A stretch of DNA of 64,000 bases from a virus. The stretch lies in the IMG/VR virus record IMGVR_UViG_3300031578_000014, one strand, 5' to 3'. This document shows positions 16,762 to 38,271 of this stretch, piece by piece (positions within the stretch are counted from its first letter, which is position 1; each line of letters opens with the position of its first letter). The notes beneath the pieces were generated by a model, which saw only the letters and a program-made list of their open reading frames with translations, had not been told where the DNA came from and did no database searches. The translations under genes and the position numbers were made by a program.

Positions 16762-16772
16762 GAGAGGTACAG

Positions 16773-17166: not shown

Positions 17167-17207
17167 AGCGACAAGCCCGGATACTCCGGTAGCTTGTCGC
17201 TTTTTTT
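17167..17207 (+). terminator. intrinsic terminator (copy 1 of a duplicated terminator module)
   Basis: AGCGACAAGC-CCGG-atact-CCGG-ta-GCTTGTCGCT followed by T7. Confidence 0.8.
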
Positions 17208-23586: not shown

Positions 23587-23753
23587 ACGCGGGAGTAGCC
23601 TGGATCAAGAGAGCCATCGCGGGGGCCACGTGGGCTCACGTTTCGATGGAGCCTCCTATGCCCCAGCCCAGGGAGTGGGTGTTCGTCGGCAGGACTGACA
23701 ATGGACCGAGGAACGTGTTTTGGTGGGAGATCGTTCAGGTATGGTGGAACTGA
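23583..23753 (+). CDS. small hypothetical protein
   Basis: ATGA overlap with portal stop; within track ORF 23562..23753. Confidence 0.4.
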   Translation: MNAGVAWIKRAIAGATWAHVSMEPPMPQPREWVFVGRTDNGPRNVFWWEIVQVWWN

Positions 23754-23763
23754 GGAGGGAGCG

Positions 23764-24120
23764 ATGAGTAGGGAGCTTGACGCCTTAGTAGAGAAGCACA
23801 TCTTCGGGAGAGACCCAAGTTATTACGACTGCCCCCACTTCGATGAGAAGGGGCGTATGCTCTCGTTCTGCATTTGCCCCGAGATGCCGCACCGGAGTTC
23901 CGATCCAACGTCAGCATGGCCGATTATTGACCACCTCACGGCTGAACTACTACTCACCTTTCGGATTCAGATCACAAAGCCGGGTGAGGCAACAGTTGAA
24001 TGTTGGGGTCCTTATTCAGCCCCCTTGACCGAGAGCGGACCTGTTGCAGAGGCGATCTGTATGTGCGGGTTAGCCGCTATGGGTGTTGATGTCGTGAAGG
24101 AACTCGCGGCGCAAGGATAG
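23764..24120 (+). CDS. phage ABA-sandwich-domain-like protein, paralog 1
   Basis: MSRELDALVEKHIFG N-terminus; C-terminus VVKELAAQG shared with the next gene. Confidence 0.55.
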   Translation: MSRELDALVEKHIFGRDPSYYDCPHFDEKGRMLSFCICPEMPHRSSDPTSAWPIIDHLTAELLLTFRIQITKPGEATVECWGPYSAPLTESGPVAEAICMCGLAAMGVDVVKELAAQG

Positions 24121-24132
24121 AGGAAGGGAGCA

Positions 24133-24561
24133 ATGGGTACGGAGCTTGACGCGTTGGTAGCCGAGAAGGTGATGGGCCTCGATGTTGAGTGGAATACTGA
24201 GACGCCATGCCCCTATTGCGATTCAGAGATGCGCTACTGTGGGGATAGATCGCGGTGTACTCAGTGTGGCGAATGGCGCTATGGCCCATATAAGGAATAC
24301 TCCACCAACATGGCCGCCGCATGGGAAGTGGTGGAGAAGCTATGCAACTGGGATGTGGGCGACAACATGCTAATACTGATGGGGCAGGGCCCAGACCCGT
24401 CTAACCCTGACGATCCGGGCAACTGGTGGGAAGCGGAAATCAACGGCATTAAGATTGGCAAGGTCAAGGCCAAGGCTGATACCGCGCCTCACGCCATCTG
24501 CCTAGCGGCCCTCAAGGCCAAGGAAGTCGATGCTGTAAAGGAACTCGCGGCGCAAGGTTAG
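24133..24561 (+). CDS. phage ABA-sandwich-domain-like protein, paralog 2
   Basis: MGTELDALVAEKVMGLD; CPYC..CTQC zinc ribbon; ends AVKELAAQG. Confidence 0.55.
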   Translation: MGTELDALVAEKVMGLDVEWNTETPCPYCDSEMRYCGDRSRCTQCGEWRYGPYKEYSTNMAAAWEVVEKLCNWDVGDNMLILMGQGPDPSNPDDPGNWWEAEINGIKIGKVKAKADTAPHAICLAALKAKEVDAVKELAAQG

Positions 24562-24571
24562 AGGAGGGAGC

Positions 24572-24724
24572 ATGGAAACGGTTGTAATACGAGACAGCAA
24601 GGGAAAAGCCCGGAAGGCGGTAAAGATAGGAAACCGGTACTACGTGGAGGTTCCTGGAAACAGCGGCATTTTTGATGATCGCATGGAGAACCATGTCGTG
24701 ATACTACAGGGGGCGAACCGATGA
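24572..24724 (+). CDS. 50-aa hypothetical protein
   Basis: ATG behind GAGGAGGGAGC; ATGA overlap with the next gene. Confidence 0.4.
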   Translation: METVVIRDSKGKARKAVKIGNRYYVEVPGNSGIFDDRMENHVVILQGANR

Positions 24725-25260
24725 CCTGCATAGTAGGGCTAACAGACAAAGGCAAGGTCTACATCGGAGGGGACTCCGCTTCGGGTAATGGATCCATGAC
24801 ACAGGTAAGCACGGTGCCCAAGCTCTTCCGGAAGGATCCGTTCGTGATCGGCTATACGTCGTCTTGGAGGATGGGTCAGATTCTACAGCACCACCTCCGC
24901 GCCGATGACCTCAAGGAAAGCGACTCGGCACACGAGTTCATGGTATGCGTGTTTATCGAGAAGGTGCGCCAGCTATTCAAGACCTTTGGCTATGCCAGAC
25001 GGGAGAACAACGAGGAGACGGGCGGGACATTCCTAGTGGGCTACTGCGGCCACCTGTACTTTATAGGCAGCGACTATCAGGTCAATGAGACCCTAGACGG
25101 CATGGACGCCTGTGGATGCGGTGCTGAGGTAGCACTGGGGGCACTCTACGCAACCAAGGGAACCCAGCTGAACCCCTTCCAGCGGCTCGACATCGCTCTT
25201 GAGGCAGCTGCGCACTTTAGCAGTGACGTTCGGCCGCCGTTCCGCGTCGAAGTTATATGA
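24721..25260 (+). CDS. proteasome-beta/HslV-like Ntn threonine peptidase
   Basis: M-TCIVGL start; with Thr2 as residue 1, Asp17 (GGDS) and Lys33 (VPKLF) fall at canonical positions; GCGAEVALGAL glycine motif. Confidence 0.7.
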   Translation: MTCIVGLTDKGKVYIGGDSASGNGSMTQVSTVPKLFRKDPFVIGYTSSWRMGQILQHHLRADDLKESDSAHEFMVCVFIEKVRQLFKTFGYARRENNEETGGTFLVGYCGHLYFIGSDYQVNETLDGMDACGCGAEVALGALYATKGTQLNPFQRLDIALEAAAHFSSDVRPPFRVEVI

Positions 25261-25270
25261 CAGGAGTCAA

Positions 25271-26242
25271 ATGAGAATCGCCTTCACTGAGCAAACGGTA
25301 ACCAAGACCTTCGGGAGCACTCGTCGGATAGTCGAACTTTCCAACGCCCTGAAAGTCTTAGGGCATGATGTGACGGTCTACACGAAGAACGGGCAGCCGC
25401 CCAAGTGGATCCCGCTCTTTACGCCCGTAAAGCTATGGTCGGCGATTAGGGGAACTTACGACCTGGCTCTGTTCAACAACTCCAAGCCGGACGAACTACG
25501 CTTAGTGAGGAAGACAGACGCGAAGGTCCGCGCCTTCTACGTCCTGGGGTGGGGAGAGACCAGGCTGGACGACATCGAGCAGCACATTAAGGGAGGCAGC
25601 CCGGACCCAGGGATAAGGGTGATCAGAAGCGTCTTCGACGATCCGGAGTTCTTGGTGCTGGCTTGCTCGACGTGGATAGGGCAGCACCTCCGAGACCGAT
25701 ACAGAAACGATGCCGAAACGCTGTTAGGGGGCATCAACCGGCAGCACTTCCGCCCATACCCCAAGGCCAAGGGGTTAAGGGTCTACTACTCGGGGGACCC
25801 GCGAAAGCGCAAAGGCACCGACACTACCAGGAAGGCGATTAGCCAGATGATTCACCGGATGAATCACACGGCCATTGCCCGCACCTACTGGGGAGAGGGT
25901 TTGAGTCAGGTGCAGATGGGGCAATGGTATTCGGAGGCTACGATCTTCGCCGACGGGCAACTATGGGCGGGATGGAACAACCCCGTCCTCGAGGCGATGG
26001 CCTGCAAGACCCCGGTAGTCTGTACGGACATCGGAGGGGTAAAGGATTTCGCCTTTGATGGGGAAACGGCACTGCTGGTGCCACCTAAAGACGTGGACGC
26101 TATGACGGAGGCGTTGATTCGTTTGGTCAAGGATCAGGCATTGAGAGATCGGCTGGCGCAGAATGCTTACAGTCACGTTAAGCAGTTTGCATGGGAGAAG
26201 ACGGCGAGAAGGTTAGTTCAGTTAGTGGAGGAGCGACTGTGA
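25271..26242 (+). CDS. glycosyltransferase, GT-B fold (GT1/GT4-like)
   Basis: EAMACKTPVVCTDIGGVKDFAFDGETALLVPPKD C-terminal sugar-donor motif. Confidence 0.8.
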   Translation: MRIAFTEQTVTKTFGSTRRIVELSNALKVLGHDVTVYTKNGQPPKWIPLFTPVKLWSAIRGTYDLALFNNSKPDELRLVRKTDAKVRAFYVLGWGETRLDDIEQHIKGGSPDPGIRVIRSVFDDPEFLVLACSTWIGQHLRDRYRNDAETLLGGINRQHFRPYPKAKGLRVYYSGDPRKRKGTDTTRKAISQMIHRMNHTAIARTYWGEGLSQVQMGQWYSEATIFADGQLWAGWNNPVLEAMACKTPVVCTDIGGVKDFAFDGETALLVPPKDVDAMTEALIRLVKDQALRDRLAQNAYSHVKQFAWEKTARRLVQLVEERL

Positions 26243-26451
26243 TAGGTGCCTATCTCATAGATGCGTACTTTCGACAACGGAACCTCTTCGATAGGCTGCA
26301 TGAGGAAGAGACGCGAATGGGAGAGATCATCGAGGAGGCAAGCAAGGCATTCGAGCTAGAGAACGGACACCCTCCAATCACTCAGGCAGAGAAGAAACGA
26401 GCACTACTGAATCACGTAATCGCGGAGAGGGAGGCTAGGGACACGAGATGA
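26239..26451 (+). CDS. hypothetical protein
   Basis: GTGA overlap start in track ORF 26191..26451; 3' end repeated at 26979-27014. Confidence 0.45.
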   Translation: MIGAYLIDAYFRQRNLFDRLHEEETRMGEIIEEASKAFELENGHPPITQAEKKRALLNHVIAEREARDTR

Positions 26452-26708
26452 CAACCGATGCAGAAGTGCAAGGGGTATTCGAGGAGTTCTGGCAGCCTAT
26501 CGTCATGCCTAACGGGGAATGGAATCTGGAGCAGGTCAAGCGGGAACTCTATGACTACCGCCGGATGATGACAAGCGTTTCTGAGGTCTATGACCAGATC
26601 ACAAATGGCCGGATCAGTAAGCCAAACACAGACGCTTCAGTAGTGATAGACGAAGCCGACGATGTGGTGAATGACCTTATCCGGGAGGCTACCGCGAAAG
26701 GTGTGTGA
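26448..26708 (+). CDS. hypothetical protein
   Basis: Track ORF, ATGA overlap. Confidence 0.55.
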   Translation: MTTDAEVQGVFEEFWQPIVMPNGEWNLEQVKRELYDYRRMMTSVSEVYDQITNGRISKPNTDASVVIDEADDVVNDLIREATAKGV

Positions 26709-27027
26709 GCATGGCGCCAAGCCTACGCCCGTCATATTGTGGGATGAAGATAGACAGGACATAAAGATTGCCAAGGTTGATCCTTGTCTTGCTTGTACGA
26801 TACATGAACTGAACGCCAGGGGAATCAGAACGATTGCGTGTTGTTGTACGCACGGGAAGTGGCCCCATGCCTCCATTCGGATTCAAACAGCCGACGTACA
26901 ACGGGCAGAAAATGTGGGGCACCATGCCATCTATCACGAAGGCTGCTGGTCAGTTGAAATACCGTACTGGTTATTGCAGAAGAAACGAGCACTGCTGAAT
27001 CACATAATCGCGGAAGGGGGAGCATAG
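26701..27027 (+). CDS. Cys-rich hypothetical protein
   Basis: GTG 26701 in track ORF 26671..27027; CLAC...CCCTH motifs. Confidence 0.45.
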   Translation: MCEHGAKPTPVILWDEDRQDIKIAKVDPCLACTIHELNARGIRTIACCCTHGKWPHASIRIQTADVQRAENVGHHAIYHEGCWSVEIPYWLLQKKRALLNHIIAEGGA

Positions 27028-27032
27028 TCACC

Positions 27033-27395
27033 ATGATACTACTAAACAGCCTCGTGAGCATTGCTTGGGTAGTCCTGATCTGCATACTTGGCGCGCTGTT
27101 CATCTATAGCCTACTGATCGTACCACATCTAGAACACAAGGCGACAGGGAAGCGTTTGGCCGAGATGGACGCTCAGGAGGATCAACTGCCAAAGGTAGGC
27201 CCCGCGGAATTCTGGTGCCAACGCTATGAATACCTCTCCCGCATCCAGCAAGCTAGAGATCGGCGTTCCCGGGACATCGAAGACGCGTGGGTACGGTATT
27301 GGAAGGAGCTGGTAGCGATAGAAGCCGAGTTCGCTGAGCTAGAGGCATCACAAGGGGAGAACGAATGCGATACAAGCGCCTGCGCAGATGCCTAA
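27033..27395 (+). CDS. membrane-anchored hypothetical protein
   Basis: N-terminal TM LVSIAWVVLICILGALFIYSLLIV. Confidence 0.55.
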   Translation: MILLNSLVSIAWVVLICILGALFIYSLLIVPHLEHKATGKRLAEMDAQEDQLPKVGPAEFWCQRYEYLSRIQQARDRRSRDIEDAWVRYWKELVAIEAEFAELEASQGENECDTSACADA

Positions 27396-27613
27396 ACCCC
27401 AATTGTCTGCATACAGTGGGCGGCGGCAAGATGACCCTCGAATCAACCTGGGTCAAGGAGTACGTTAGGCTGACCTGTCAGAGGTGCGGGGCGATTAGCG
27501 TATTCAATCCCATAGGGAAGGTCTCTCCTGATTTGAGGCGCCACATCTACGTTCAGAGGGGCAGGGGACCTATAGAGCACGTGTTTCCAAAGTCCAGAGT
27601 ATTGAGGGTCTGA
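27365..27613 (+). CDS. zinc-ribbon hypothetical protein
   Basis: CLNPNC...CQRCG. Confidence 0.5.
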   Translation: MRYKRLRRCLNPNCLHTVGGGKMTLESTWVKEYVRLTCQRCGAISVFNPIGKVSPDLRRHIYVQRGRGPIEHVFPKSRVLRV

Positions 27614-27616
27614 GAG

Positions 27617-27850
27617 ATGCACTGGGACGGCGACAAGATCATCAGCGACGGGCTAGACAAGAAGGCCGCTCAGGAAGTGCGGGAGAAGGGGCTACTGACT
27701 AGGCTGAACCGCGTGCTGACGCCCGAGGGGTACGTGCTGTTCTATACCTATGACCCCGAGCGCGTAGGCGAACCGGACGCCTTGGTGGGGCTGAGTATTG
27801 AGAGGTATAAGCCCAAAGAGGGAGAGAAGAGCCTGGCGGTGATGGGATGA
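27617..27850 (+). CDS. hypothetical protein
   Basis: Track ORF. Confidence 0.5.
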   Translation: MHWDGDKIISDGLDKKAAQEVREKGLLTRLNRVLTPEGYVLFYTYDPERVGEPDALVGLSIERYKPKEGEKSLAVMG

Positions 27851-28590
27851 ATAGCGCGGCATTCTGGATAGCAGCCGGGGAGCCGTATCTTAGAGAAGCG
27901 GTCAAATCGGCGCAGAGCCTGCGACGGCACATGCCAGATGTAGTGCGGGTACTCCTGACACAGAATATGTATCTAGGTTCCTATATCCGCGATACGGCGG
28001 CGTTCAATGAGGTCATCGGGATGGTGAATCCCGAACCTGACGAACCGTGGTATCCGTTCAGCATCGCGTGTTTTGAGTGGGCGGCGCGCAATCTTCAGGC
28101 GCCTTTGCTAGAGCCTACTCCCGATGTGCTTATCAATCTGGACGTTGATACCTATGTGATCCAGCCCTTCTATGATCTGCTGGAAGTGCTGACACGATTT
28201 GACGTAGTAGGGACGCATGCGCCGGCACGCTACACGAGCAGGACCATAGGGCCCGTTCCGGAGGCCTTCTGCGAGCTCAATCTAGGCATGCTCGCCTTTC
28301 GCAACAGCGACAAGATGAGGGGAGTGCTCAGGGAATGGGCGCGGCGCTACGAAGCGCATAAGGACGTCTACGGTGACAACGACCAGGCTTCTCTCAGGGA
28401 AACCCTCTGGAGAACGGAGGATGTGAGGATTTGGGTAGCGCCTCCCGAGTATCATTTCAGGTTCATCTTCGGGGGGTTCGCACGGTATCCAGTGAGGGTG
28501 CTGCATGGACGGGCGGAAGACATTGAGCAAGTGGCCTACAGGGTGAACAAGCCTCTCGGAATGAGGATATGGAAGAAGGGGGAGTTGTAA
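27847..28590 (+). CDS. putative nucleotide-diphospho-sugar (GT-A, GT8-like) glycosyltransferase
   Basis: INLDVDTYV DxD motif and LNLGMLAF downstream. Confidence 0.5.
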   Translation: MNSAAFWIAAGEPYLREAVKSAQSLRRHMPDVVRVLLTQNMYLGSYIRDTAAFNEVIGMVNPEPDEPWYPFSIACFEWAARNLQAPLLEPTPDVLINLDVDTYVIQPFYDLLEVLTRFDVVGTHAPARYTSRTIGPVPEAFCELNLGMLAFRNSDKMRGVLREWARRYEAHKDVYGDNDQASLRETLWRTEDVRIWVAPPEYHFRFIFGGFARYPVRVLHGRAEDIEQVAYRVNKPLGMRIWKKGEL

Positions 28591-28787
28591 TGGGAGCAGC
28601 GACACGTAGTCCCCGAAAGGTCGTAAAGGTAACTGATCCGAGCTATTCACCGCCCCGATTCTATCGACTCAGGCATCGATGGTCCTTGATAGATTGGGGA
28701 TTGTTCCGGGCGGCGTTAGTGGGTCATTTGACCGCACTACTAACTGTTCTACTGATCTTGATTGTACTTGAGATGTGTACTGGATGA
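28590..28787 (+). CDS. small membrane protein
   Basis: TAATG overlap; C-terminal TM LTALLTVLLILIVLE. Confidence 0.4.
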   Translation: MGAATRSPRKVVKVTDPSYSPPRFYRLRHRWSLIDWGLFRAALVGHLTALLTVLLILIVLEMCTG

Positions 28788-28801
28788 AGGGAGAGGGAGC
28801 T

Positions 28802-29200
28802 ATGATGTACCAGTGCGAATACTGCAAGACCAGACACGAAGAATGGACGCCCAACTGCCCCAAGTGCGGGGGGCCTCTGAAAGTCCCTAAAGGCACCTTC
28901 TACTTACACCGGCCACGTTGTCCCAGATATTCACTCCCGGTTGATGAAATCCTTCCCGAAGACCCGAAGGGCTGGGGAGAATGGTTTTCAGAATATGCCT
29001 TCGTAGACGCGTTAAATCATACACCTTCGGGTAAGGCACCTCCCGCAGAGGACTTCCGGATCGAACCGTATGAGGAGATAGACGAAGACAGGGGTTGTTT
29101 CGCAGAAAGGCATCCGAACCTTGACCGCGTTGGACAAGCCTTATCAATAGCGATTCTGGTTGCGGCGATGAGCTTGCTGATACTGCAGGCCTTGGCATAA
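28802..29200 (+). CDS. zinc-ribbon protein with C-terminal TM
   Basis: ATG behind GAAGGGAGAGGGAGC; CEYC..CPKCG; SIAILVAAMSLLILQALA. Confidence 0.55.
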   Translation: MMYQCEYCKTRHEEWTPNCPKCGGPLKVPKGTFYLHRPRCPRYSLPVDEILPEDPKGWGEWFSEYAFVDALNHTPSGKAPPAEDFRIEPYEEIDEDRGCFAERHPNLDRVGQALSIAILVAAMSLLILQALA

Positions 29201-29211
29201 AGGAGGGAGCT

Positions 29212-29424
29212 ATGAACGGAGCGATATGGTACGAAGGCACAGGTGGCGTTGGAGGATCCCCAGACGGAGTAGTGATGATAGATAAGATCGTGAATATCAC
29301 CGAGGACGACAAGCATCACTATACGCTTATTCATCTTGTTGATGGGGGGCTGATTAGGAGTCAGACTAGCGTGGCTGAACTAAGGGGTAGAATCAACTCT
29401 CTTCTCGGGGGAAGAGAACTGTGA
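29212..29424 (+). CDS. 'MNGAI' family protein, paralog 1
   Basis: MNGAIWYEGTGGVGGSPDGVVMIDKI. Confidence 0.55.
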   Translation: MNGAIWYEGTGGVGGSPDGVVMIDKIVNITEDDKHHYTLIHLVDGGLIRSQTSVAELRGRINSLLGGREL

Positions 29425-29461
29425 CCCATCACTTCATCAACCTGAAGACAAGGAGGGAGAC

Positions 29462-29767
29462 ATGAACGGAGCAATACAATATGAGGCGAGCCGCGGGGTA
29501 GGCGGAAATCCGGATGGGATAGTGGTGATAGACAAGGTCAAGTCTATCCAGGAGACAAGGTACGGCTACAGGCTCATTCTTCTCAGCGACGGTAGCCAAA
29601 TCAGGACCAGAACAACCCTGTTCGACTTGGGCAGGAGAATCAATGACGTGGCGGCTTTCCTTGCCCAGGAACAACCTACAGTCTGTAACATCGTGGCCTT
29701 GCCCGAACCCTTGCCCGGGCAGCCGCTCAGATCAGGGGACAAACCACGGCCGCTCAAGGAGGGATGA
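29462..29767 (+). CDS. 'MNGAI' family protein, paralog 2
   Basis: MNGAIQYEASRGVGGNPDGIVVIDKV. Confidence 0.55.
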   Translation: MNGAIQYEASRGVGGNPDGIVVIDKVKSIQETRYGYRLILLSDGSQIRTRTTLFDLGRRINDVAAFLAQEQPTVCNIVALPEPLPGQPLRSGDKPRPLKEG

Positions 29768-29898
29768 ACATGAATCAACTATTCGAGGCAATCTTTACGG
29801 TTTGGGCGATGTGCCTCATTGTAGCCGCGATGGTCGCCTTGCCCATCTTGGTGATCTGGCACGTAGTAACGGGTTCTCTCAGGTGGCTTGACGGATGA
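29764..29898 (+). CDS. 44-aa membrane peptide
   Basis: MNMNQLFEAIFTVWAMCLIVAAMVALPILVIW...; ATGA overlap. Confidence 0.35.
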   Translation: MNMNQLFEAIFTVWAMCLIVAAMVALPILVIWHVVTGSLRWLDG

Positions 29899-29948
29899 TC
29901 CACCACTTCATCAACCTAAGCGCCAACATATAAGAAGGGGAGGGAGCC

Positions 29949-30179
29949 ATGAACGGAGCGATCAGATACGGGACGACAGATGGGAGGTTTAGCGGTGTGG
30001 CCGTCATAGACAACATCACACACATGGATGAGGCGGCGGATGGGTACGTGTGGATCTATTTCAACGATGGAACTAGCGTTCGCAGTTCAACCGCTATCGA
30101 CACGCCGCAGAAGAGAATCTATGAAGCCGTTGTAGAGATAGCCCGCGCTTGCCAGTTCACTATATTGGAGATGGAATGA
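29949..30179 (+). CDS. 'MNGAI' family protein, paralog 3
   Basis: MNGAIRYGTTDGRFSGVAVIDNI. Confidence 0.55.
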   Translation: MNGAIRYGTTDGRFSGVAVIDNITHMDEAADGYVWIYFNDGTSVRSSTAIDTPQKRIYEAVVEIARACQFTILEME

Positions 30180-30667
30180 TCCGCCACTTCATCAACCTGA
30201 GCGGGGGCTTAGAAGCGATAGAAGGACTCGAAGCGTTTGAATTCGTGCGCATCCGCTCCACCGACTGTGAGCACAAGATGGGGCCTCCTCAGTGGGAGGC
30301 TATTCTAGCAGAGCTGGATGCGAACTTCCTCATGGCCCTGGCTCGGGGCGATGACTGTAGAGTCTATGATTCCTCGGCGGAAGGGGAATCGCACGCCCTC
30401 AGGTGGGGACTGGCATGGATCCGGTTCGTCTTGAACGCGGCATGGTTCGGCAGGGTGACGCGGCCGGTGATGATAGACGGCGAAGACAGGAGCGGCCTCT
30501 TTCACCGGGCGTGGAGAAAGACAGGCAAGAGGACCAGGCGCAAGATACGGTACTTCCGGAACTTCCTCACTACAGACGAAATCCGCCTTGAATCCGTGTG
30601 TGTCAAGGCCAAGCATGACGGCAACTGGAAATACTACAGGGAGGCGCTAACAAATGCCGGAAGATAG
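30176..30667 (+). CDS. hypothetical protein ('MIRHFINL' gene, the intact copy)
   Basis: ATGA overlap start in track ORF 30149..30667; its first 8 codons recur as stubs at 29421 and 29895. Confidence 0.55.
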   Translation: MIRHFINLSGGLEAIEGLEAFEFVRIRSTDCEHKMGPPQWEAILAELDANFLMALARGDDCRVYDSSAEGESHALRWGLAWIRFVLNAAWFGRVTRPVMIDGEDRSGLFHRAWRKTGKRTRRKIRYFRNFLTTDEIRLESVCVKAKHDGNWKYYREALTNAGR

Positions 30668-30926
30668 GGTCATTGTAATCGTCGAGACTCATTCGCCACT
30701 TGACTTAGTTAGAAAGAGGCTGAGTGCTCAATACTGTTTCAAGAAGCCAGCGGACGCCGTTATCTGCGGGCGTAATCTCTATGAGGCCGTCAAGTTGGAG
30801 GCTGCGAGATTGGAAGGCTTTACGATGCCTCCGACAGAGGGGCCGGAGCCTAAGCTGATGGGCAAGGAGTTCTATGTTAGCGACGATCTTGAGCCTAACG
30901 AAATCATCATAGGACAAAGAAGCTAG
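30654..30926 (+). CDS. hypothetical protein
   Basis: Track ORF. Confidence 0.5.
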   Translation: MPEDRVIVIVETHSPLDLVRKRLSAQYCFKKPADAVICGRNLYEAVKLEAARLEGFTMPPTEGPEPKLMGKEFYVSDDLEPNEIIIGQRS

Positions 30927-30936
30927 GCGGTGTGTG

Positions 30937-31290
30937 ATGGCGAGAGATAGAATCTGCATTGATTTCGACAATGTCATCCACTTGATGGACTGGGAACCCG
31001 GCCAGAGCATCGCCCAGATAGAAGGGGATCCGGTGCCTGGAGCCAAGGAGGCGATCGCCCTGCTGAGGGAGAGGTATGAGGTAGTGGTCCTGTCAGCGCG
31101 TGCGGACAGTGTGAAGCGCAAGCGTGCTATAGCGCGTTGGTTAAAGGAACAAGGGATAGTCGTGGATCAGATCACTGCCATGAAGTTGCCGGCGCTGATG
31201 TATCTGGACGACAGGGCGGTGCACTTCTACGGACAGTGGGAGGAAACGCTGAGGGACATCGCAGCCTTTAGGCAATGGAGGGGGCAATGA
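30937..31290 (+). CDS. HAD-superfamily phosphatase-like protein
   Basis: ICIDFDNVIH (DxDxV motif I), VVVLSAR (motif II), YLDDR (motif IV). Confidence 0.55.
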   Translation: MARDRICIDFDNVIHLMDWEPGQSIAQIEGDPVPGAKEAIALLRERYEVVVLSARADSVKRKRAIARWLKEQGIVVDQITAMKLPALMYLDDRAVHFYGQWEETLRDIAAFRQWRGQ

Positions 31291-31463
31291 GATACGTGAT
31301 CATTGCCGCGGTCTGCTTGGTAGTCAGCGCGCGGCTGTTCGGCTACGCGATGCACGGTCTACCCTTCGCCGTCGCGGGGGTAGCAGGGGCGTTCTTCAGC
31401 CTGATGGGGTTGGGCGCGGTCCGGGCTATCTCAGACGATTCGAGGAGAGGGAGATGGGACTGA
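31287..31463 (+). CDS. small two-TM membrane protein
   Basis: MRYVIIAAVCLVVSARLFGY..VAGVAGAFFSLMGLGAV. Confidence 0.45.
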   Translation: MRYVIIAAVCLVVSARLFGYAMHGLPFAVAGVAGAFFSLMGLGAVRAISDDSRRGRWD

Positions 31464-31660
31464 CAGCGGCAAGCGTGCAGAGGGGCGTGAGCATCATGCT
31501 AGAGCGTCTGCGGGCCTACCCATTTGGCTATCCAAGCCCAGGCATGACCGGCCTCCCGTCGGAGATGATTGATGCAGCTAAACGGTGGCCTGAGGCATTT
31601 TCGCCCGAGGAACTAGCACTCTTGAACACGTTGGAGAAGGACCGGGAGGAGACTAGATGA
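31454..31660 (+). CDS. hypothetical protein
   Basis: Track ORF. Confidence 0.5.
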   Translation: MGLTAASVQRGVSIMLERLRAYPFGYPSPGMTGLPSEMIDAAKRWPEAFSPEELALLNTLEKDREETR

Positions 31661-32388
31661 TCGTCATCGTCTTGGGCATGCACCGTAGCGGAACGTCTCT
31701 CGTCTCCTCCGTTCTACACTCTATGGGTGTGAAGATGGGGGAAGAGGTACACCTGGAGCGGAGGGACCCCGACAGCCAGCCTCAGGGCTATTGGGAGGAC
31801 CAAGACTTCACCTCCCTCAATCGGTTGATCATCAGGGACGCGAAGGGCCACTGGCACCGCCCCCCGAAGAGAGAACGCATCCTACAGGCCGCGCGGGGTT
31901 GGAATGAGGACATGGCCCAGATCATCGCGACGAAACAGAAGGTCATGGAAAGCGAGAACCTGGCGGCGCGGACGCTAACGGGGGCGAGCAGCTGGATCGG
32001 TTGGGGATGGAAGGACCCCCGGAGCTGCCTCACTATCGAAGCGTGGTGGCCGCATCTTCTGGAGCGCGATATACGTTTCGTGCGGGTGCGGAGGGAAAGG
32101 CGGGCGATCATTGACAGCCTCATCAGGAGGGGCGAGCAGTTGGGCAATGTGCCGCTGGCGGAGCAGCGGGCGGCATGGATCCCCGTCATTCAGGACCACG
32201 AGAACCGGATCACGAACTTCTTCGTCAGGACGGGCAGTCCGTGCATCGACATCCACTATGAGCATCTGGTGAATCGGGGCGGGCACATCGCGCCACTGAC
32301 CAAGATCGCAGACCTGCTCGGGTTGGAAGGGCGGCAATTCATCGAGGGCCTGCAGGCAGCGGAGGCCAGGATAGAGTTCAGGGGGTAG
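31657..32388 (+). CDS. sulfotransferase-like protein
   Basis: VIVLGMHRSGTSLV = PAPS 5'-phosphosulfate-binding loop; WKDPRSCLT resembles the 3'-phosphate motif. Confidence 0.65.
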   Translation: MIVIVLGMHRSGTSLVSSVLHSMGVKMGEEVHLERRDPDSQPQGYWEDQDFTSLNRLIIRDAKGHWHRPPKRERILQAARGWNEDMAQIIATKQKVMESENLAARTLTGASSWIGWGWKDPRSCLTIEAWWPHLLERDIRFVRVRRERRAIIDSLIRRGEQLGNVPLAEQRAAWIPVIQDHENRITNFFVRTGSPCIDIHYEHLVNRGGHIAPLTKIADLLGLEGRQFIEGLQAAEARIEFRG

Positions 32389-32390
32389 GA

Positions 32391-32930
32391 GTGGACAACT
32401 ACATTGTCGAGAAGGCAACGGGCGAGAAGTGGTGGAATCTCATTCTCAAAAGGGTGAAGGCAAACGATGAAGTTAGCGAGCAGCCCTTCCGTCTCTTGGT
32501 AGACTGGAGCCTACTGAGTGAGCCTATTCCTGTCAAGCTAGCGGTGTGGACTCCAGGCCGGACGGTAGTTGCCCATAGTGAGATCAGGGACTTGGGAACG
32601 GCGGCCGGCCTGCGCATCGCGGGATTGAGCAACACCGTGGTCGCCCCCGGCTATCGCCGCCAGGGAATCTATACCGCCTTGATCAAGTTGCGGAATGCCA
32701 TCCTGGATGGTAGCGACTTCGACTGCGTTGCCGCCCGCGTGAAGAAGGGCTTCGAAGACCGATACATGGCGCAATACAATCCTCAGTTTCTAGGTTTTAC
32801 GTGCGTAAAGAAAGAGGACGCGTATGGTGCGGCCTGGCTACTACGGCCAATCCATTACTGGGATCACCTTGCTGTAGAGGAAGAGAAACCGATCATGAAT
32901 CACCTCGAGACGAAGGTGAAGAAATGGTGA
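32391..32930 (+). CDS. GNAT-family N-acetyltransferase
   Basis: VVAPGYRRQGIYTALI = GNAT motif A (R/Q-x-x-G-x-G/A). Confidence 0.6.
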   Translation: MDNYIVEKATGEKWWNLILKRVKANDEVSEQPFRLLVDWSLLSEPIPVKLAVWTPGRTVVAHSEIRDLGTAAGLRIAGLSNTVVAPGYRRQGIYTALIKLRNAILDGSDFDCVAARVKKGFEDRYMAQYNPQFLGFTCVKKEDAYGAAWLLRPIHYWDHLAVEEEKPIMNHLETKVKKW

Positions 32931-33544
32931 ACTACAGGGCCTTCGTGGGCAAAGAAGCGGAGTATGATAGGCGCGGGGCGGTGCAGTTCGTCGTTCTGAC
33001 CATGCTCGGCCTGCGTGAGCATCACTACCTGCTGGACATCGGCTGTGGATCTCTCAGGGGAGGGAGGTTGTTTATCCCCTACCTGTTGCCCGGAAGATAT
33101 TGCGGGATAGACCGTCCCGAGACCCAACCTATCGTAGAGGAAGGGCTCAAGAACGAACTAGGGGAAGGCGGGGCGAAGGATCCGCTCTTCATGTATAGCG
33201 ACAAGTTCTCCTTCGGCGGATTCGGGTGCAAGTTCGACTACATTCTAGCGCAGGCGGTGTTCTGCCACATCACCCTGGCAGAGATCAGTACCTGTATGGA
33301 ACAGGCGCGACTTGTCATGAAGAAGGAATCCGTCTTCGTGGTATCCTTCCACGCGGCGGAGATAGACGACAAGAGAGAAAAGCTAACCTACCCCGAAGTG
33401 GCGTGGTACCGGATGGACACGATCCGAGGACTGGCGGCCGACGCCGGACTTTCCTGCAATCGGTTGAACCGAGTCATGCTGGGGGCGACGAATCTTCACG
33501 AACAGTATAGCCGCATGGCCTGGGTGGCGATGCGGCTCAGCTAG
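32924..33544 (+). CDS. class I SAM-dependent methyltransferase
   Basis: ATGGTGA overlap start; LLDIGCGSLRGG motif I. Confidence 0.6.
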   Translation: MVNYRAFVGKEAEYDRRGAVQFVVLTMLGLREHHYLLDIGCGSLRGGRLFIPYLLPGRYCGIDRPETQPIVEEGLKNELGEGGAKDPLFMYSDKFSFGGFGCKFDYILAQAVFCHITLAEISTCMEQARLVMKKESVFVVSFHAAEIDDKREKLTYPEVAWYRMDTIRGLAADAGLSCNRLNRVMLGATNLHEQYSRMAWVAMRLS

Positions 33545-33563
33545 GGGGCGGAAGGAACTTCGT

Positions 33564-34196
33564 ATGTGGAAGTGGAATAGCCGAGCTCGGCGCTACTACA
33601 ACGACGAAACCGGACAGTTCATGCCCAGGACTACGGTGCTCAATTACGTGCAGGGGAGCATCAACGCCGGCGGGTTGGTTACAGACACGCTAGCTGATCT
33701 CGTGACCCAGGGACGGTTGTCCCCTCCCGATTGGCGCGACATGATGCGCGAGGAGATCAAGAGGGAATACATCAGGCAATACCTGTTAGGGATCGGCGGG
33801 CGAGACCAGATGACCTTCGAGGACTGGGGGCGGCTCGGGGGAATGCTCAAGGAGCAGTATGGGTACCTTGAGGGCTTCTATAAGGAGATTGACAAGCTCT
33901 CGGAAGGTCAGGTAGCCGTCAGGGCGAGGATGTACTCTGCCAGTGCTCGAGAGGCATACGAAAGGGCGAACGGGCAGGCCTGGGGCGGAGCTCCGTTGCC
34001 AGCCTATCCCGGGGACGGAAGCACCATTTGTCTAACGAACTGCGCCTGCAACTGGGAGATCCACAGCGCCGAGGCGGAGGAAGAGCGCATGCGGTGGACC
34101 TGTTATTGGAGGTTGGGCGCGGTGAAGACGGAGCACTGCGACGATTGCGTGGGGAGAGCGATGACATGGAACCCCCTCATAGTAGAGGCGGCATGA
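33564..34196 (+). CDS. minor head protein (MuF/SPP1 gp7-like), tentative
   Basis: Position in the head module; LTNCACNW resembles the C-terminal NCRC motif of MuF-like proteins. Confidence 0.4.
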   Translation: MWKWNSRARRYYNDETGQFMPRTTVLNYVQGSINAGGLVTDTLADLVTQGRLSPPDWRDMMREEIKREYIRQYLLGIGGRDQMTFEDWGRLGGMLKEQYGYLEGFYKEIDKLSEGQVAVRARMYSASAREAYERANGQAWGGAPLPAYPGDGSTICLTNCACNWEIHSAEAEEERMRWTCYWRLGAVKTEHCDDCVGRAMTWNPLIVEAA

Positions 34197-34266
34197 TTGT
34201 TGTAACAATTCGTAGAGGGCCCAGACGGCGGCTGACGCACGCCATAGGAGAAAGGGGTATCTAGGC

Positions 34267-34491
34267 ATGGATGAGGCGGAAAAGGCCACAGAAATCAGCG
34301 AAACTGAACAGCGGGCGTATGTACAGTACTATGCGCGGGGCGGCCTGAACGCGATTGAACACCTTCCAAAAGCGCTAGATGAGTATGCCGAGGCCCTGGG
34401 CAAACCCATCAAAGACCTTACCGACCTAGAGCGGCGGCAGGCCTTCTGCAGCTACATAATGTCAGGAAAGCATCTGGAGGAAGAGGAATGA
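34267..34491 (+). CDS. hypothetical protein
   Basis: Track ORF. Confidence 0.5.
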   Translation: MDEAEKATEISETEQRAYVQYYARGGLNAIEHLPKALDEYAEALGKPIKDLTDLERRQAFCSYIMSGKHLEEEE

Positions 34492-34730
34492 TACGATCTA
34501 GGGCGCGTGCCGTATCCGTAGATGAGAGGGGGTTTGTGATCGTAGACGGCGTGAAGCTCGGGCGGCGCGTGGTCAAGGACGGCGTAGTAAAGCTCGAGGT
34601 CTGCGACAAGGACCGGCGTCGTTCGGCTGAGCGTGGGACACGGCTGGTAGAGGTGTCCGTTCAAGAATTAGAGGAGGCATTGGCCGATGTTTCACAGAAT
34701 ATGGAAGTGCTGGATCAGGAAGGTTCATGA
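34488..34730 (+). CDS. hypothetical protein
   Basis: Track ORF, ATGA overlap. Confidence 0.5.
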   Translation: MIRSRARAVSVDERGFVIVDGVKLGRRVVKDGVVKLEVCDKDRRRSAERGTRLVEVSVQELEEALADVSQNMEVLDQEGS

Positions 34731-34917
34731 CTTTGAGATCGACTATGAGGCAGCGGCGCTGAACGGCAAGTGTAGGCGTTGCGGTAGGCAGCTAAGGGGC
34801 ACTCCTGGTACCCGCTCTCTATGGCGGCGTTTCTACCCCGCAGGGCGGAAGATAGCGTTCGGACCGCCGCATTATGACGGCGTTTCATGGAGGTACAATG
34901 CCAGAATATCTAGATAG
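34687..34917 (+). CDS. zinc-ribbon hypothetical protein (overlaps both neighbours; uncertain)
   Basis: CRRCGRQL motif; 44-nt overlaps. Confidence 0.3.
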   Translation: MFHRIWKCWIRKVHDFEIDYEAAALNGKCRRCGRQLRGTPGTRSLWRRFYPAGRKIAFGPPHYDGVSWRYNARISR

Positions 34918-35110
34918 GTCAAGAGATGGTTGCAAGGTGTGGGATTTCTCCCCATGGCCGAATGTTGAATGCTGCCAACTCTGTCACGATGGGGAGGAAG
35001 GGCATCACATGGCCGTCGTGACGGACCAACCGCAGGAGTGGATAGTGAAGGTCTGTCATCCCCTCGCGGAGCGTTTGAAGGCGATGGGGTATCTGCTTGA
35101 GGAAGCATGA
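34874..35110 (+). CDS. Cys/His-rich hypothetical protein (ATG 34898 is an alternative start)
   Basis: ECCQLCHDGEEGHH..VCH; GGAGG RBS before 34898. Confidence 0.5.
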   Translation: MTAFHGGTMPEYLDRSRDGCKVWDFSPWPNVECCQLCHDGEEGHHMAVVTDQPQEWIVKVCHPLAERLKAMGYLLEEA

Positions 35111-35156
35111 TGGCGTTTCATGGAGATCTCGACTAAAGTAGACGAAAGGCACTTCC

Positions 35157-35193
35157 TTGAAGAAATAGGTGCCCAGTTTACTTTAACTATTAG
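35157..35193 (+). promoter_or_regulatory. sigma70-like phage promoter, family copy 3
   Basis: TTGAAGAAATAGGTGCCCAGTTTACTTTAACTATTAG upstream of ATG 35205. Confidence 0.55.
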
Positions 35194-35204
35194 GGGGGAG
35201 CAGA

Positions 35205-35672
35205 ATGACCAAACGCAAGCCCATTCCTTTCGGGGACCTAGGGGAACTGATGGTCGATGCGGGGGCGTTGCCTGCCTTAGAGTACATTCGGCTGCTAGTA
35301 GACCTCTTCGGCGCAGAACCCATCATCGCCGCCGTGAGAAACCACGAGCGAAGACCGGTTGATTGGGATGTCACCGTGGAGAAGTGGATAGAAGGGCAAC
35401 CGCCCCAACGCCGGATGAAGCTGATTCAGGACGGTACAGCTATAAGGGCAATTGAGCACCACACGGATTCTCGCTGTAGGCTGCACTACGACATACCCGA
35501 GGATTTCGGCTATGAGCGGAAATGGTTCGTATCGATGGACGATAATTGTGGCTTGGCGGACAGTCTTATCGATGCAGTGAGACAGGCGGTCAGCGAGGCG
35601 AAGCAAGAAGAAGCGCGGGAAGAAGCATTGAGGGAGGCGCTGCCTCTTCCGCCAAGAACGCCTATCGGCTGA
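35205..35672 (+). CDS. hypothetical protein
   Basis: Track ORF, GGGGGGAG RBS. Confidence 0.6.
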   Translation: MTKRKPIPFGDLGELMVDAGALPALEYIRLLVDLFGAEPIIAAVRNHERRPVDWDVTVEKWIEGQPPQRRMKLIQDGTAIRAIEHHTDSRCRLHYDIPEDFGYERKWFVSMDDNCGLADSLIDAVRQAVSEAKQEEAREEALREALPLPPRTPIG

Positions 35673-35687
35673 ATCCTCTCAATCAGC

Positions 35688-35716
35688 TTGCACGTTCTCA
35701 GAAAATGTGGTATAAT
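35688..35716 (+). promoter_or_regulatory. near-consensus sigma70 promoter with extended -10
   Basis: TTGCAC(35688-93)-N17-TGgTATAAT(35708-16). Confidence 0.75.
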
Positions 35717-35722
35717 ACTAAG

Positions 35723-36569
35723 TAGACGTTGCTCCTCTGTTCGCGAAAGTCGGCTTTGCATGCCGTGCGCTTGACAGCCTAGCGACAGAGGCGCTACTTT
35801 TACTAAAGTTCAGAAATGGTGGAAGACCATGTGCGACAGAATAGAAGATTGTAGACTACGCCAAATCATTCTCTATGCCCATGAACATTACGGGGACGAA
35901 TGAATCCCTTGGCAGGTAGCCTTGATTAGCTGCCAGAAGGCGACAGAACAGGACTTGGAATGGGCCAAGAAACAGGCTGTAGAATTGGGCTTAGAAGATT
36001 TAGCTGGTGTGTGTTTAGAGAAATCGTAGGCAGCGGGGCGCTGCCTAGCTCCCCCGGCACATAGTATGGCCGGGCCGACAGCCCCGAGGGGCTTGTCTCT
36101 GGCTTCGCTGGCTGTGCCGCAAACAGCCCGCTGGTGGAGGGTGACGGGAGTAATCCTGCCCACCCCTGGCTTTTGCCCCTGAGCCTATCAGGGGCCTCTG
36201 GTCCGGGGAACCTGTCGCTATCGTTCTATCCGCCCACCGGCTGCGGATTGGGAAGCTGCCGACAAACAGCCGGAAGGCTATCGACGGCGTGACGGGCCTG
36301 GACTATTCCCACTGTCCCTTACCACATGATATAGCGCCGGGAGGCGGCAAGTACCCCGGCATGAGAAAGTAAGGGCACCGGCGGACCGCCCGACAAGGTG
36401 CCCAACGAGCCGATGAGCCAGGGAGCGATCCCCGGCTCTTTCTGCATACAGAACGTATACGATTGACTACCAAACGTATACGCTGAGTAGTTTAACACTG
36501 AATAGTTTACCCATGTAAAGCGTGAGCCATTGCGCCGTTCGGGAGTCGCTTCCCGGGCGGCGCTTTTTT
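35723..36569 (+). ncRNA. candidate long structured non-coding transcript (unclassified)
   Basis: Bounded by promoter 35688-716 and terminator 36532-69; no + strand ORF of 60 aa or more; many GC helices incl. a GGAA tetraloop hairpin. Confidence 0.4.
36532..36569 (+). terminator. intrinsic terminator
   Basis: GCGCCGTTCGGGA-gtcgct-TCCCGGGCGGCGC (13 bp incl. 2 G:U) followed by TTTTTT. Confidence 0.8.
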
Positions 36570-36598
36570 GTTGCCCAACAAATGGCGGGAGGGGTGGG

Positions 36599-36718
36599 AT
36601 GGCCGAGATTCTTATGAACGTGGGCGTGCAGGGGATGATCCTCGGCTGGGCCATAGCGTTGATCACATTCGCCATGGCCGGTTTCTGCATGCTGATACTG
36701 GCGAAGTTCGCGAGGTAG
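36599..36718 (+). CDS. 39-aa membrane peptide
   Basis: ATG behind GGGAGGGGTGGG; MAEILMNVGVQGMILGWAIALITFAMAGFCMLILAKFAR. Confidence 0.5.
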   Translation: MAEILMNVGVQGMILGWAIALITFAMAGFCMLILAKFAR

Positions 36719-36720
36719 CT

Positions 36721-36813
36721 ATGCCCTATACGCCAGAGACCGTACCTGACTACGTACCCGATGACAAAGCCGATCAGTGGGCGAAGGTCTGGAATAGCGC
36801 CTACGACACCTGA
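36721..36813 (+). CDS. ChaB-like N-terminal segment ending at an in-frame TGA
   Basis: MPYTPETVPDYVPDDKADQWAKVWNSAYDT resembles the ChaB N-terminus (MPY..LP..V..P..A....FNSAWD); in frame with 36892..38271. Confidence 0.5.
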   Translation: MPYTPETVPDYVPDDKADQWAKVWNSAYDT

Positions 36814-36891
36814 ATTGAGGAAGGCGGCAGTCAGGACGACTGCGAGGCTTCCGCTTTCGCGCAGGCCAGCGGCGCGATCAAGGAGAACGCT

Positions 36892-38271
36892 ATGAATGCT
36901 TTGGAGAGGTTGCGGGAAAGAATAAGCGCCGCCTTTGCGGAGGCGCTAGAGCCCTCGATCAAGGAGTCAAACGAGGAAGCAAGGGCGATCTCGGGCTGCG
37001 ACATGATAGCGCAGGTATATGCCCAGCTATGGGATTCGACCGATGAGCTGCTGAGGAACGCGTGGCTTCTGGATTTCTTCCTTGACGATGGCGTGCTCTA
37101 CATGGTCATCGCGAGTGAGGGCAAGCTATACCGCGCGAAGCTTGACGTCGACTCAGCGACAGATACGGTGATCTTGGGTGAGTGGCAACAGATCAAGGTA
37201 GACCATGTGCCCATCGAAACGAGGCTTACGGTAGAGCGCCAGGCAGACGGCAGGTGCCGGTTCGTGGCGATCGCCAACACGGCGATTCTGAACCGCGTCG
37301 GCGAGATCGACAGTATGGCCTTGTTCGACAACTTCATCCAGCGTGCCGAGGATAGCGGAAAGTACCCCTACGTCACCTTCTACCACATCAGCAATGAGAA
37401 GCTCCTCCCTACGTTCCGCATGGGTCAGTGTGACTACCTGGCTCGAGATGAGGTGGCCTACATCGTCACCGGCTTGCTAGACGAATCGACGCCTCTCGGT
37501 GCGGATATGGCGCGTGCCCTAGAGGAGAACGCCGAGATTTGGGGCACGTCTATCGGATTCAACCCCACGGCCCCGCCTGAGCTGGCGGAGATCGGCGGGG
37601 TAAGGATTCCCGTATATCGCGAGGGGGAGCATAGCGAGCTGTCGCTCATTCTGAAGGAAGATGCGGCGGCTCTCTTCACGGCAGTTATTAGAGAGGAGGT
37701 TAGCATGGACAGCAGAATCGCCAAGGCGCTAGAAGCGCTTGGACTGAGCGAGGAGCGGATCGCGGAACTCGGTACTTTGGTCGATGACGTCAAGCACCGT
37801 GTCAAGGATGAGGATATGGTGACGCGAGAAATCGAAGAGGCACCCGCGGAGACACCAGAAGTAGTGCTCGTAGAAGAGTTGGTAGAAGAGCCTGTGGAAG
37901 AGCCCGCAGAAGTGGTACTCGATGAGGAAGCACTGCCCGCGCTCGCCGAAGGACTCCTGAGTTCCGAACCCTTCCAGGGGATTCTCGTGCCCATCGTAGA
38001 GAGCCTGGAGGCGCTTGGCAAGAGGCTCGAAGAGGCGGTGGCTACACTGACCGCAACCCAGACGGAGGCGCTGGAGCCGATCCGTACCAGGCTCGATCAG
38101 TTGGAGCGGACCGACGACGAGAAGAAGGACGAGTGGATGAAGGACTTGCCCGCCAAACGGCAGCTCACTGTGAAATACCGTGCGCCGGGTAGGGAGCAGG
38201 GTGAACCGGCCCCTAAGACTTATGCGGAAACGGCTGAGGAAACCGTAGCCGCGATCAAAGGAGGCGCATAA
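36892..38271 (+). CDS. prohead protease / scaffold fusion (HK97 S78-like), tentative
   Basis: Position before the capsid gene; YVTFYHIS...VTGLLDES...WGTSIGFNPT protease-like core; long acidic coiled C-terminal half. Confidence 0.55.
   Translation: MNALERLRERISAAFAEALEPSIKESNEEARAISGCDMIAQVYAQLWDSTDELLRNAWLLDFFLDDGVLYMVIASEGKLYRAKLDVDSATDTVILGEWQQIKVDHVPIETRLTVERQADGRCRFVAIANTAILNRVGEIDSMALFDNFIQRAEDSGKYPYVTFYHISNEKLLPTFRMGQCDYLARDEVAYIVTGLLDESTPLGADMARALEENAEIWGTSIGFNPTAPPELAEIGGVRIPVYREGEHSELSLILKEDAAALFTAVIREEVSMDSRIAKALEALGLSEERIAELGTLVDDVKHRVKDEDMVTREIEEAPAETPEVVLVEELVEEPVEEPAEVVLDEEALPALAEGLLSSEPFQGILVPIVESLEALGKRLEEAVATLTATQTEALEPIRTRLDQLERTDDEKKDEWMKDLPAKRQLTVKYRAPGREQGEPAPKTYAETAEETVAAIKGGA

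Follow-up and report, generated by a model that had tools for sequence, protein, structure and literature searches.

A variable non-coding cassette, rather than one conserved large RNA, may lie ahead of the prohead-protease gene in a family of Chloroflexota phages

What does a phage carry in a unit of ~850 nucleotides (nt) that begins with a promoter, ends with a terminator and holds no intact gene? The question is raised by IMG/VR virus record IMGVR_UViG_3300031578_000014, of which we analyzed a stretch of 64,000 nt, hereafter the window. On its + strand, positions 35688-36569 had been proposed, in an original prediction made from the letters alone, to encode a large structured phage RNA. The discrete non-coding unit and its structured distal part have both stood up to analysis, but the idea of one conserved ~850-nt RNA has not: since only the promoter and the last ~200 bases recur in relatives, the unit does not appear to be a single conserved RNA of that kind. 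We consider it a little better than an even bet, at roughly 55%, that the unit is an autonomous, moron-like non-coding RNA cassette or leader, with a conserved function in transcription, that has been enlarged by orphan insertions. From the pattern of conservation, the elements under selection would be the promoter, a stem that we call hairpin B, two terminators preceded by a common box (T1 and T2) and a short palindrome.

The window is contained in a 72,909-bp circular-type phage assembly that was recovered identically from several samples. All of its relatives in genome collections came from metagenome-assembled genomes of Chloroflexota (Anaerolineae and Ardenticatenia); protein-anchored and pattern scans of IMG/VR yielded no relatives. 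Five loci with 57-59% protein identity (L007, L008, L010, L011 and L012) are here called the close relatives, and those with 31-40% identity the distant ones. At the corresponding position, ahead of the prohead-protease gene, each of the five close relatives has a promoter-to-terminator unit, which measures ~150-550 nt as against ~850 nt in the window. When the window was aligned locally with these five, similarity was confined to three stretches: 35687-35717, which is the promoter; 36365-36448, comprising hairpin B and T1 and 77-90% identical (77% to L012); and 36497-36575, comprising the palindrome and T2 and 74-92% identical. For the interior (35717-36364) no DNA or protein homolog was found. 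These ~650 nt are thus an orphan, for which there are no sequences in which to look for covariation. Covariation was seen only in hairpin B and in the terminator stems.

The content of the leader differs completely among the relatives, being a methionine transfer RNA (tRNA-Met), repeats resembling miniature inverted-repeat transposable elements (MITEs) or almost nothing. The tRNA lies within the unit in L007, L012 and L043, and in the first two of these the terminator-like hairpin T1 stands between the promoter and the tRNA. L011, whose unit has lost hairpin B, keeps the first 14 nt of tRNA-Met between T1 and T2. Four copies of a MITE-like element (cacccttcgatac, a hairpin, then actcaggatg) occupy the leader and flanks of L010 (2430-3130), so the locus evidently tolerates small mobile insertions. 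Outside the five close relatives, L044 has TTGCAC..TGtTATAAT, a leader of ~75 nt, a terminator and then a ribosome-binding site (RBS), and L045 has TTGACA-N17-TAGAAT, ~35 nt, a GAGCC box with terminator and then an RBS. In L043 tRNA-Met comes after the promoter, GC-rich repeats fill the next 330 nt, and AGCGTGAGCCGATGCGCCG with a terminator comes last; directly after the tRNA (2215-2300) stand 15-nt tandem repeats (GGCATAGCCGTGGGC, ~5 copies). In L036 an extended -10 promoter precedes small open reading frames (ORFs) and a tandem pair of terminators; box and terminator are found in L046, and the promoter is lacking in L040 and L038.

The promoter of the window (35688-35716, + strand, TTGCAC-N17-TGgTATAAT) is of the extended -10 sigma70/sigmaA type, as originally proposed. 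Its -10 element and TG extension are perfect, but its -35 element agrees with TTGACA at only three of six positions, which is why a generic promoter scan did not list it. Transcription is expected to start near 35723. The sequence TGNTATAAT occurs twice in the 64 kb, one occurrence being this promoter, and a promoter of the TTGCAY-N17-TGNTATAAT type stands at the equivalent place in all five close relatives as well as in L036 and L044. At the other end, the main terminator T2 (36520-36569) consists of a GAGCC box (GCGTGAGCCATTG), a 14-bp stem with a GTCG loop and T6. The strong terminator at 36532-36569 had also been recognized from the start; we count 14 pairs in its hairpin (36532-36563), ten of them G-C, and it is the strongest terminator-like site on the + strand in the 60 kb scanned. 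It ends ~30 nt ahead of the next RBS. Box and terminator are kept down to relatives at 33-36% protein identity (L043, L045 and L046), and the second pair of the stem covaries (AU:4, CG:2, GC:2).

Two further elements, an internal terminator-like hairpin and a short AT-rich spacer, had been missed. The hairpin, T1, follows a GAGCC box of its own (36407-36443, + strand; GAGCCGATGAGCC-AGGGA-GCGA-TCCCC-GGCTC, then TTTCT), spans 36415-36438 and is 87-90% identical in L007, L010 and L011. Its consensus, GAGCC-N3-GAGCCAGGGA-GNRA-TCCnnGGCTC followed by U4-5, is that of a canonical intrinsic terminator; in the window the U-tract is weakened to UUUCU, compared with T4-5 in the relatives. On the + strand of the window the box GAGCC-N3-GNGCC occurs at T1 and T2 only, so that T1 has the look of a duplicated T2 module. 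Hairpins of the T1 type are also common as generic terminators in unrelated metagenome contigs: these made up most of what a metagenome scan with the T1 pattern returned, the only true relatives being L019, L020 and L029, duplicates of L010 and L012. The spacer (36446-36505, + strand, 38% GC) contains local duplications (direct repeats D2 and D3) and occupies the position of tRNA-Met in L007 and L012 and of the 14-nt tRNA stub in L011. Two other roles were considered for this region and given up: the GAGCC box as the seed of a small RNA, since complementary sites are not enriched in the window, and an anti-terminator pairing of 36386-36397 with the 3' arm of T2, which by eye is not conserved in L012.

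Between the spacer and T2 lies the palindrome TTTAC-N4-GTAAA (36506-36519, + strand), found at the same position in L007, L010, L011 and L012. It appears to be a phage-wide regulatory motif: the window holds eight copies (at 3741, 12779, 21900, 25418, 32796, 36506, 47791 and 61016) where 0.34 would be expected by chance, and about half of them (3741, 21900, 36506 and 47791) coincide with a gene boundary or lie close to one. The palindrome probably serves a phage regulator as its operator or is a hairpin signal in RNA. Just upstream of T1 stands hairpin B (GGGCACC...GGTGCCC, 36373-36403, + strand), a structurally conserved stem that forms in the window as well as in L012, L007 and L010; at four of the seven base pairs both partners differ while complementarity is maintained. 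MAFFT and RNAalifold aligned the stems of the hairpin A-B-T1 region poorly, and hairpin B was registered by hand.

The arrangement of a promoter and then a terminator directly upstream of virion structural genes, found in the window and again in L044, L045 and L036, admits another explanation. The promoter could be the true late promoter of the protease-capsid operon, with T1/T2, their boxes, hairpin B and the palindrome forming an antitermination switch operated by a protein on the RNA or DNA boxes or by a put-like RNA in cis; the leader RNA would then be a sensor and not a by-product. Phage lambda offers the model, its PR'-6S RNA-tR' region being a late leader with Q antitermination. By analogy, the unit would likewise combine a strong promoter, a terminator and virion structural genes right behind, with a short non-coding default product, and in L044 and L045 it is reduced to minimal versions of ~35-75 nt that have promoter, terminator and RBS and nothing else between. 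The conservation of the box and T2 loop sequences, which exceeds that of the proteins, the phage-wide occurrence of the palindrome and the strength of T2 all speak for a switch. Yet the terminase, the 549-aa putative portal and the o210 gene (described below), which lie upstream in the same orientation, should be late as well and would need another promoter; Pfam, PHROG and NCBIfam revealed neither a Q- nor an N-like protein; the promoter is lacking in L040 and L038; and L011 keeps the unit after losing hairpin B. Unlike in lambda, no Q-binding or pause element was identified, no Q-like gene was found with the same three collections, and the cassette is placed midway along the head module instead of at its start; its leader, 35-850 nt long, may include a tRNA. 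We regard the switch, which overlaps with the cassette that we favor, as a tentative and on balance unlikely alternative.

What, then, fills the interior? Immediately after the promoter comes a long stem-loop (35721-35804, + strand; AGTAGACGTTGCTCCTCTGT paired with ACAGAGGCGCTACTTTTACT, then CUUUUAC), an inverted repeat (I1) with 80% complementarity that corresponds to the long-range pairing proposed for the 5' end and is present in the minimum free energy (MFE) fold. The region contains a weak terminator-like match at 35780-35796 and showed no sequence conservation in the relatives. It is followed by an ORF of 66 codons (35829-36029, + strand, 46-48% GC) that is interrupted by an in-frame TGA at 35901-35903, as had been reported, and has a Shine-Dalgarno-like sequence (GGTGGAAG) upstream and a hairpin (36027-36047) directly 3'. 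No + strand ORF of at least 60 aa lies within the unit, which also agrees with the initial description. With the TGA read as Cys, the 66-codon ORF had no homolog among 5.8 billion proteins, and tblastn found no match to it in any related locus. Thereafter the composition shifts to 65% GC in an orphan segment full of hairpins (36048-36364, + strand). A long imperfect inverted repeat spans ~36130-36330. The segment had no DNA match in the relatives or, by blastn, in phages (INPHARED) or plasmids (PLSDB). It has no codon periodicity, GC by codon position being 0.67/0.70/0.61 compared with ~0.6/0.4/0.75 in neighboring genes. The frame 36154-36369 was tried as a protein and set aside, as it matched only spurious tandem-repeat proteins, via summed repeats, among 1.84 billion representative proteins. 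Global recoding of TGA, TAG or TAA was also rejected: 36030-36515 looks non-coding whichever stop set is applied, and many ordinary genes of the window terminate in TGA.

These features could be read as the remains of a protein-coding moron: an accessory gene would have been wrecked, with its promoter and terminator kept, and would survive as the 66-codon ORF and perhaps as further parts of the interior. The layout of a classic moron, the deviating GC content, and an ORF with a Shine-Dalgarno-like sequence, a single TGA break and a hairpin behind it would all fit, and a second cassette in the window (16732-17207) likewise has an ORF that needs a +1 shift. The only coding cargo, though, would be this one interrupted ORF without any homolog; the GC-rich 340 nt have neither codon periodicity nor a true protein match, and a search for protein homology across the region found none. 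Sequence identity in 18 contigs from several samples means that the TGA is not an assembly error, and a single-nucleotide polymorphism analysis among near-identical copies found no variation in the unit. We consider a decayed gene unlikely.

The second cassette is worth describing in its own right. It consists of TTGACT-N18-TGcTATAAT, ~400 nt and the terminator GCGACAAGC..GCTTGTCGC with T7, after which an RBS follows at once, and its ORF needs the +1 shift at ACAAAAAGC to reach a clearly coding-looking C-terminus. The promoter-to-terminator architecture thus recurs in the genome. The terminator at 17146-17207 and another strong one at 56637-56697 are each preceded by GTCGATCYAGACAAGATAACT and directly followed by an RBS; these sites are a second class of box, terminator and RBS module, and a simple scan missed them because their loops exceed 8 nt.

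We then asked how much of the unit is structured beyond what its composition would give. Predicted folding energies were compared with those of shuffled sequences in 250-nt windows and expressed as z. Across 36000-36625 the + strand gave -3.4, -2.2, -5.35 and -2.75, and the - strand was weaker in the first three of these four windows. Flanking + strand windows between 33.5 and 39 kb ranged from roughly -1.9 to +1.95, windows inside the 461-aa gene (39.0-39.5 kb) from -2.2 to -3.8, and the first 300 nt of the unit scored about -0.8. The excess structure is therefore real and confined to the distal ~500 nt, just where the original prediction had placed it (z -2.2 to -5.4); every one of the helices that it listed is present and part of the MFE fold. 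For the whole unit z was -5, for 36027-36364 it was -2.4 and for 36130-36330 it was -4.1. The leaders of L010, L012 and L007 are mutually unrelated in sequence, yet they too gave values of -2.2 to -3.7.

Does this structure belong to a known type of RNA? The original failure to place the unit in any family by eye was borne out. Rfam gave no match at gathering score over the whole window and, at E<=10 over 35500-36800, only five weak chance-level matches to terminator-like or short motifs. Covariance models for GOLLD, ROOL, HEARO, group I and II introns, RNase P and transfer-messenger RNA (tmRNA) found no match, nor did ARAGORN find a tRNA or tmRNA gene in the window. The units of the relatives match only the tRNA model in Rfam. 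GOLLD and ROOL are phage-borne RNAs of hundreds of nucleotides that occur near tRNA islands; a Met-tRNA precedes GOLLD env-38, and GOLLD is conserved in its 3' part but variable in its 5' part (PMC12286853). The parallel with the present unit is one of resemblance only, and it fails on the covariance models and on conserved architecture: instead of a conserved, covarying multi-helix core or pseudoknots, the relatives share, with covariation, hairpin B and the T1/T2 stems, conservation extends over ~200 nt, made up of hairpins and terminators, and the bulk of the unit occurs in one phage lineage alone.

A new large structured non-coding RNA of the GOLLD/ROOL type, tRNA-associated and with a conserved 3' domain and a fast-evolving 5' domain, might nevertheless be built on such a base. 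The transcript from the promoter to T1/T2 would in that case be a lineage-specific large structured RNA whose base, a conserved module of small-RNA type, consists of hairpin B, GAGCC box and terminator, and its fold would be functional, serving as scaffold, cage, decoy or ribozyme. Its size of ~850 nt, the lack of coding capacity and the folding excess of the whole unit (z = -5) and locally (-5.35), stronger on the + than on the - strand, are as one would expect; so is the tRNA-Met in the units of relatives, given that GOLLD and ROOL occur near tRNA islands (PMC12286853), and so are the structured leaders of L010, L012 and L007 and the covariation of hairpin B. Against it, no Rfam family matched beyond chance level even with the relaxed threshold, and what is conserved comes down to the palindrome, hairpin B and the hairpins of the two terminators. 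Phages with 57-59% identity in the adjacent protein have nothing that corresponds to the 650-nt interior, and L011, L008, L044 and L045 have no large leader. The top folding signal is one long imperfect inverted repeat, as is typical of inserted palindromic elements. Such an RNA is in our view quite improbable. If it existed, it would be a Chloroflexota-phage counterpart of GOLLD and ROOL, with a 5' body too fast-evolving to align and selected for compact folding, that acts in infection as a decoy, as a scaffold or as an in-cis modifier of RNA polymerase at T1/T2.

It could also be asked whether the locus acts purely as DNA, be it a terminus of the genome, a packaging site or a hot-spot of recombination. 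Of the three circular-type assemblies of this genome whose break point could be placed, two (73,050 and 73,036 nt) are broken within the unit, at 35871 and 36591, and a Logan contig also ends at 35871; a bubble that varies among strains, or a physical end, may be behind these breaks. Break points in circular assemblies are, however, arbitrary or a reflection of strain bubbles, the terminase genes are 17 kb away, and the promoter and terminators are conserved as such in the relatives. A purely DNA-level element is thus very improbable.

We return to the autonomous cassette. Phage morons, known from lambdoid phages such as HK97 and HK022, are insertions between conserved genes that consist of a promoter, a gene and a terminator. 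Like them, the unit is predicted to have its own sigma70-type promoter and its own factor-independent terminator flanking the insert, and it deviates in composition (46-48% and then 65% GC, against ~57% in the surrounding genome). It also occupies a place where a relative has adjoining genes: in L040 no cassette separates the o210 homolog (4344-4967) from the directly following protease gene (5001), which makes the unit an insertion-prone accessory whose presence and content vary among the relatives. Unlike morons, its cargo would be an RNA (tRNA-Met in relatives, non-coding sequence here) and not a protein gene, and it has two paralogous terminators with conserved boxes. Phage tRNA cassettes provide the closest parallel within the family, the units of L007, L012 and L043 being promoter-tRNA-Met-terminator cassettes at the same locus, although by ARAGORN and Rfam the unit of the window is without the tRNA.

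According to this proposal, the cassette's own promoter would yield a stable small RNA or a tRNA, and the transcript would meet two paralogous GAGCC-box terminators, first the weakened T1 and then the strong T2. The two could insulate the protease-capsid operon or gate the entry of RNA polymerase into it, in which event the protease-capsid genes would need read-through of T2, by antitermination or leakage. The ancestral state may have been an expression unit for a small RNA or tRNA-Met, from which the lineage of the window would have lost the tRNA while gaining ~650 nt of orphan sequence, namely a mini-ORF, either decayed or recoded, together with the palindromic GC-rich segment. This gain would account for the size of the unit and for most of the predicted structure, and no conserved large RNA machine would be implied.

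Several observations weigh against this proposal. Promoter activity, the efficiency of termination at T1 and T2 and read-through are all deduced from sequence features; Pfam, PHROG and NCBIfam identified no antiterminator of the Q, N or any other type; and the relatives do not share the gene that precedes the promoter. Sequence conservation of the GAGCC box, of the T1 module and of the T2 loop (RUCGC) exceeds that of the neighboring proteins. Since a plain terminator could do without it, such conservation gives a hint of a specific partner, either an RNA or a protein. The excess structure of the unrelated L010, L012 and L007 leaders could point to selection for structure as such, and the z values of the orphan interior (-2.4 to -4.1) are not explained by composition. 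Because of the over-conserved box and loop, the over-structured leaders and the lack of an antiterminator, we have kept both the antitermination switch and the large RNA under consideration.

The surroundings of the unit are those of a head module. The unit appears to lie within the head-gene module of this Chloroflexota phage family, at a variable hot-spot. The original statement that it sits upstream of the head-gene block applies to the protease and capsid genes; it does not apply to the large terminase gene (19844-21235), which lies 17 kb upstream of the unit. The 549-aa gene that follows the terminase (21937-23586) has no family match, and we take it to be the portal gene. Closer to the unit, a 210-aa phrog_24776 gene (o210, 33564-34196) and an 80-aa gene (o80a, 34488-34730), both of unassigned function, are kept in all relatives. 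A 155-aa ORF just upstream of the promoter had no match in Pfam, PHROG or NCBIfam and no counterpart in the relatives, which carry a methyltransferase in its place. This ORF is predicted to be driven by one of five copies of a promoter-like family, TTGAAG-N16-TACTTTAA (4792, 10631, 35157, 50464 and 61059); four of the five stand 10-25 nt before an RBS and the copy at 4792 stands ~45 nt before one. The first gene past T2 encodes a 39-aa membrane peptide (36601-36720, + strand; MAEILMNVGVQGMILGWAIALITFAMAGFCMLILAKFAR); it is conserved in L008 and L010, where it was likewise called as a gene.

The next ORF (36892-38271, 459 aa), for which 38 homologs were found, is the protease gene. An AlphaFold model of its product, made from the homolog alignment, had a mean predicted local distance difference test score (pLDDT) of 68.7, and its top Foldseek match in the PDB was the T4 gp21 prohead protease (probability 0.99, target template-modeling score 0.54), with herpesvirus assemblins also among the top PDB matches. 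By its modeled fold, the gene downstream of the unit is thus classed as prohead protease/scaffold-like. The gene after it (461 aa) had no family match and no PDB sequence match; from gene order, it presumably encodes the capsid protein. Glycosyl-, methyl- and sulfotransferase-like genes form a ~13-kb block (23600-36900) between the terminase/549-aa genes and the protease-capsid genes, which suggests extensive modification of the virion or the DNA; further glycosyltransferase and BNR/beta-propeller proteins are encoded downstream. Just upstream of the terminase region, at 18858-19194, are dense short GGC-rich direct repeats spaced by 10-15 nt, an array of nine copies of a 78-nt family.

The protease gene raised a question of its own. 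With an N-terminal extension (36722-36891) that is in frame with it, the gene would span 36722-38271 on the + strand; P0004, P0009 and P0021 are homologs. The extension is interrupted by a TGA at 36811-36813 (ORF 36722-36813). This TGA aligns with a conserved Cys codon (TGC or TGT) in L011/P0004, P0009, P0021 and L046. The same codon is TGA in the window, L007 (5908-5910), L008 (5998-6000) and L010 (3389-3391), so that an in-frame UGA at a Cys position has been kept in several lineages; elsewhere in the window TGA is a normal stop. A stem of 6-7 bp, putatively SECIS-like, located 14 nt past the UGA is paired in five of five sequences, with an inconsistent lower stem, at a nucleotide identity of 85% and with one covarying pair (GU:3, CG:1, GC:1). 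An in-frame UGA at a Cys position with a hairpin downstream is the classic signature of a bacterial selenoprotein. The protease N-terminus is thus a candidate, on this alignment, for a phage selenoprotein (U-x10-C motif) or for a conserved programmed stop. A search of the accessible literature found no report of phage-encoded selenoproteins. Our initial impression that the extension is a ChaB domain had no support from Pfam.

Taken together, what seemed to be a mystery RNA of 850 nt can be read as a dissected cassette in which the mini-ORF and the GC-rich palindromic segment are the orphan parts. The interest of the locus rests on the conserved box-terminator module and on the neighboring TGA codon and not on an orphan 850-nt RNA. 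To our knowledge, Chloroflexota phages are essentially unstudied. If confirmed, the TGA at a Cys codon in four diverged phages would amount to a phage-encoded selenoprotein; and should the antitermination switch prove true, the box-terminators would offer a testable entry point to late-gene control in Chloroflexota phages.

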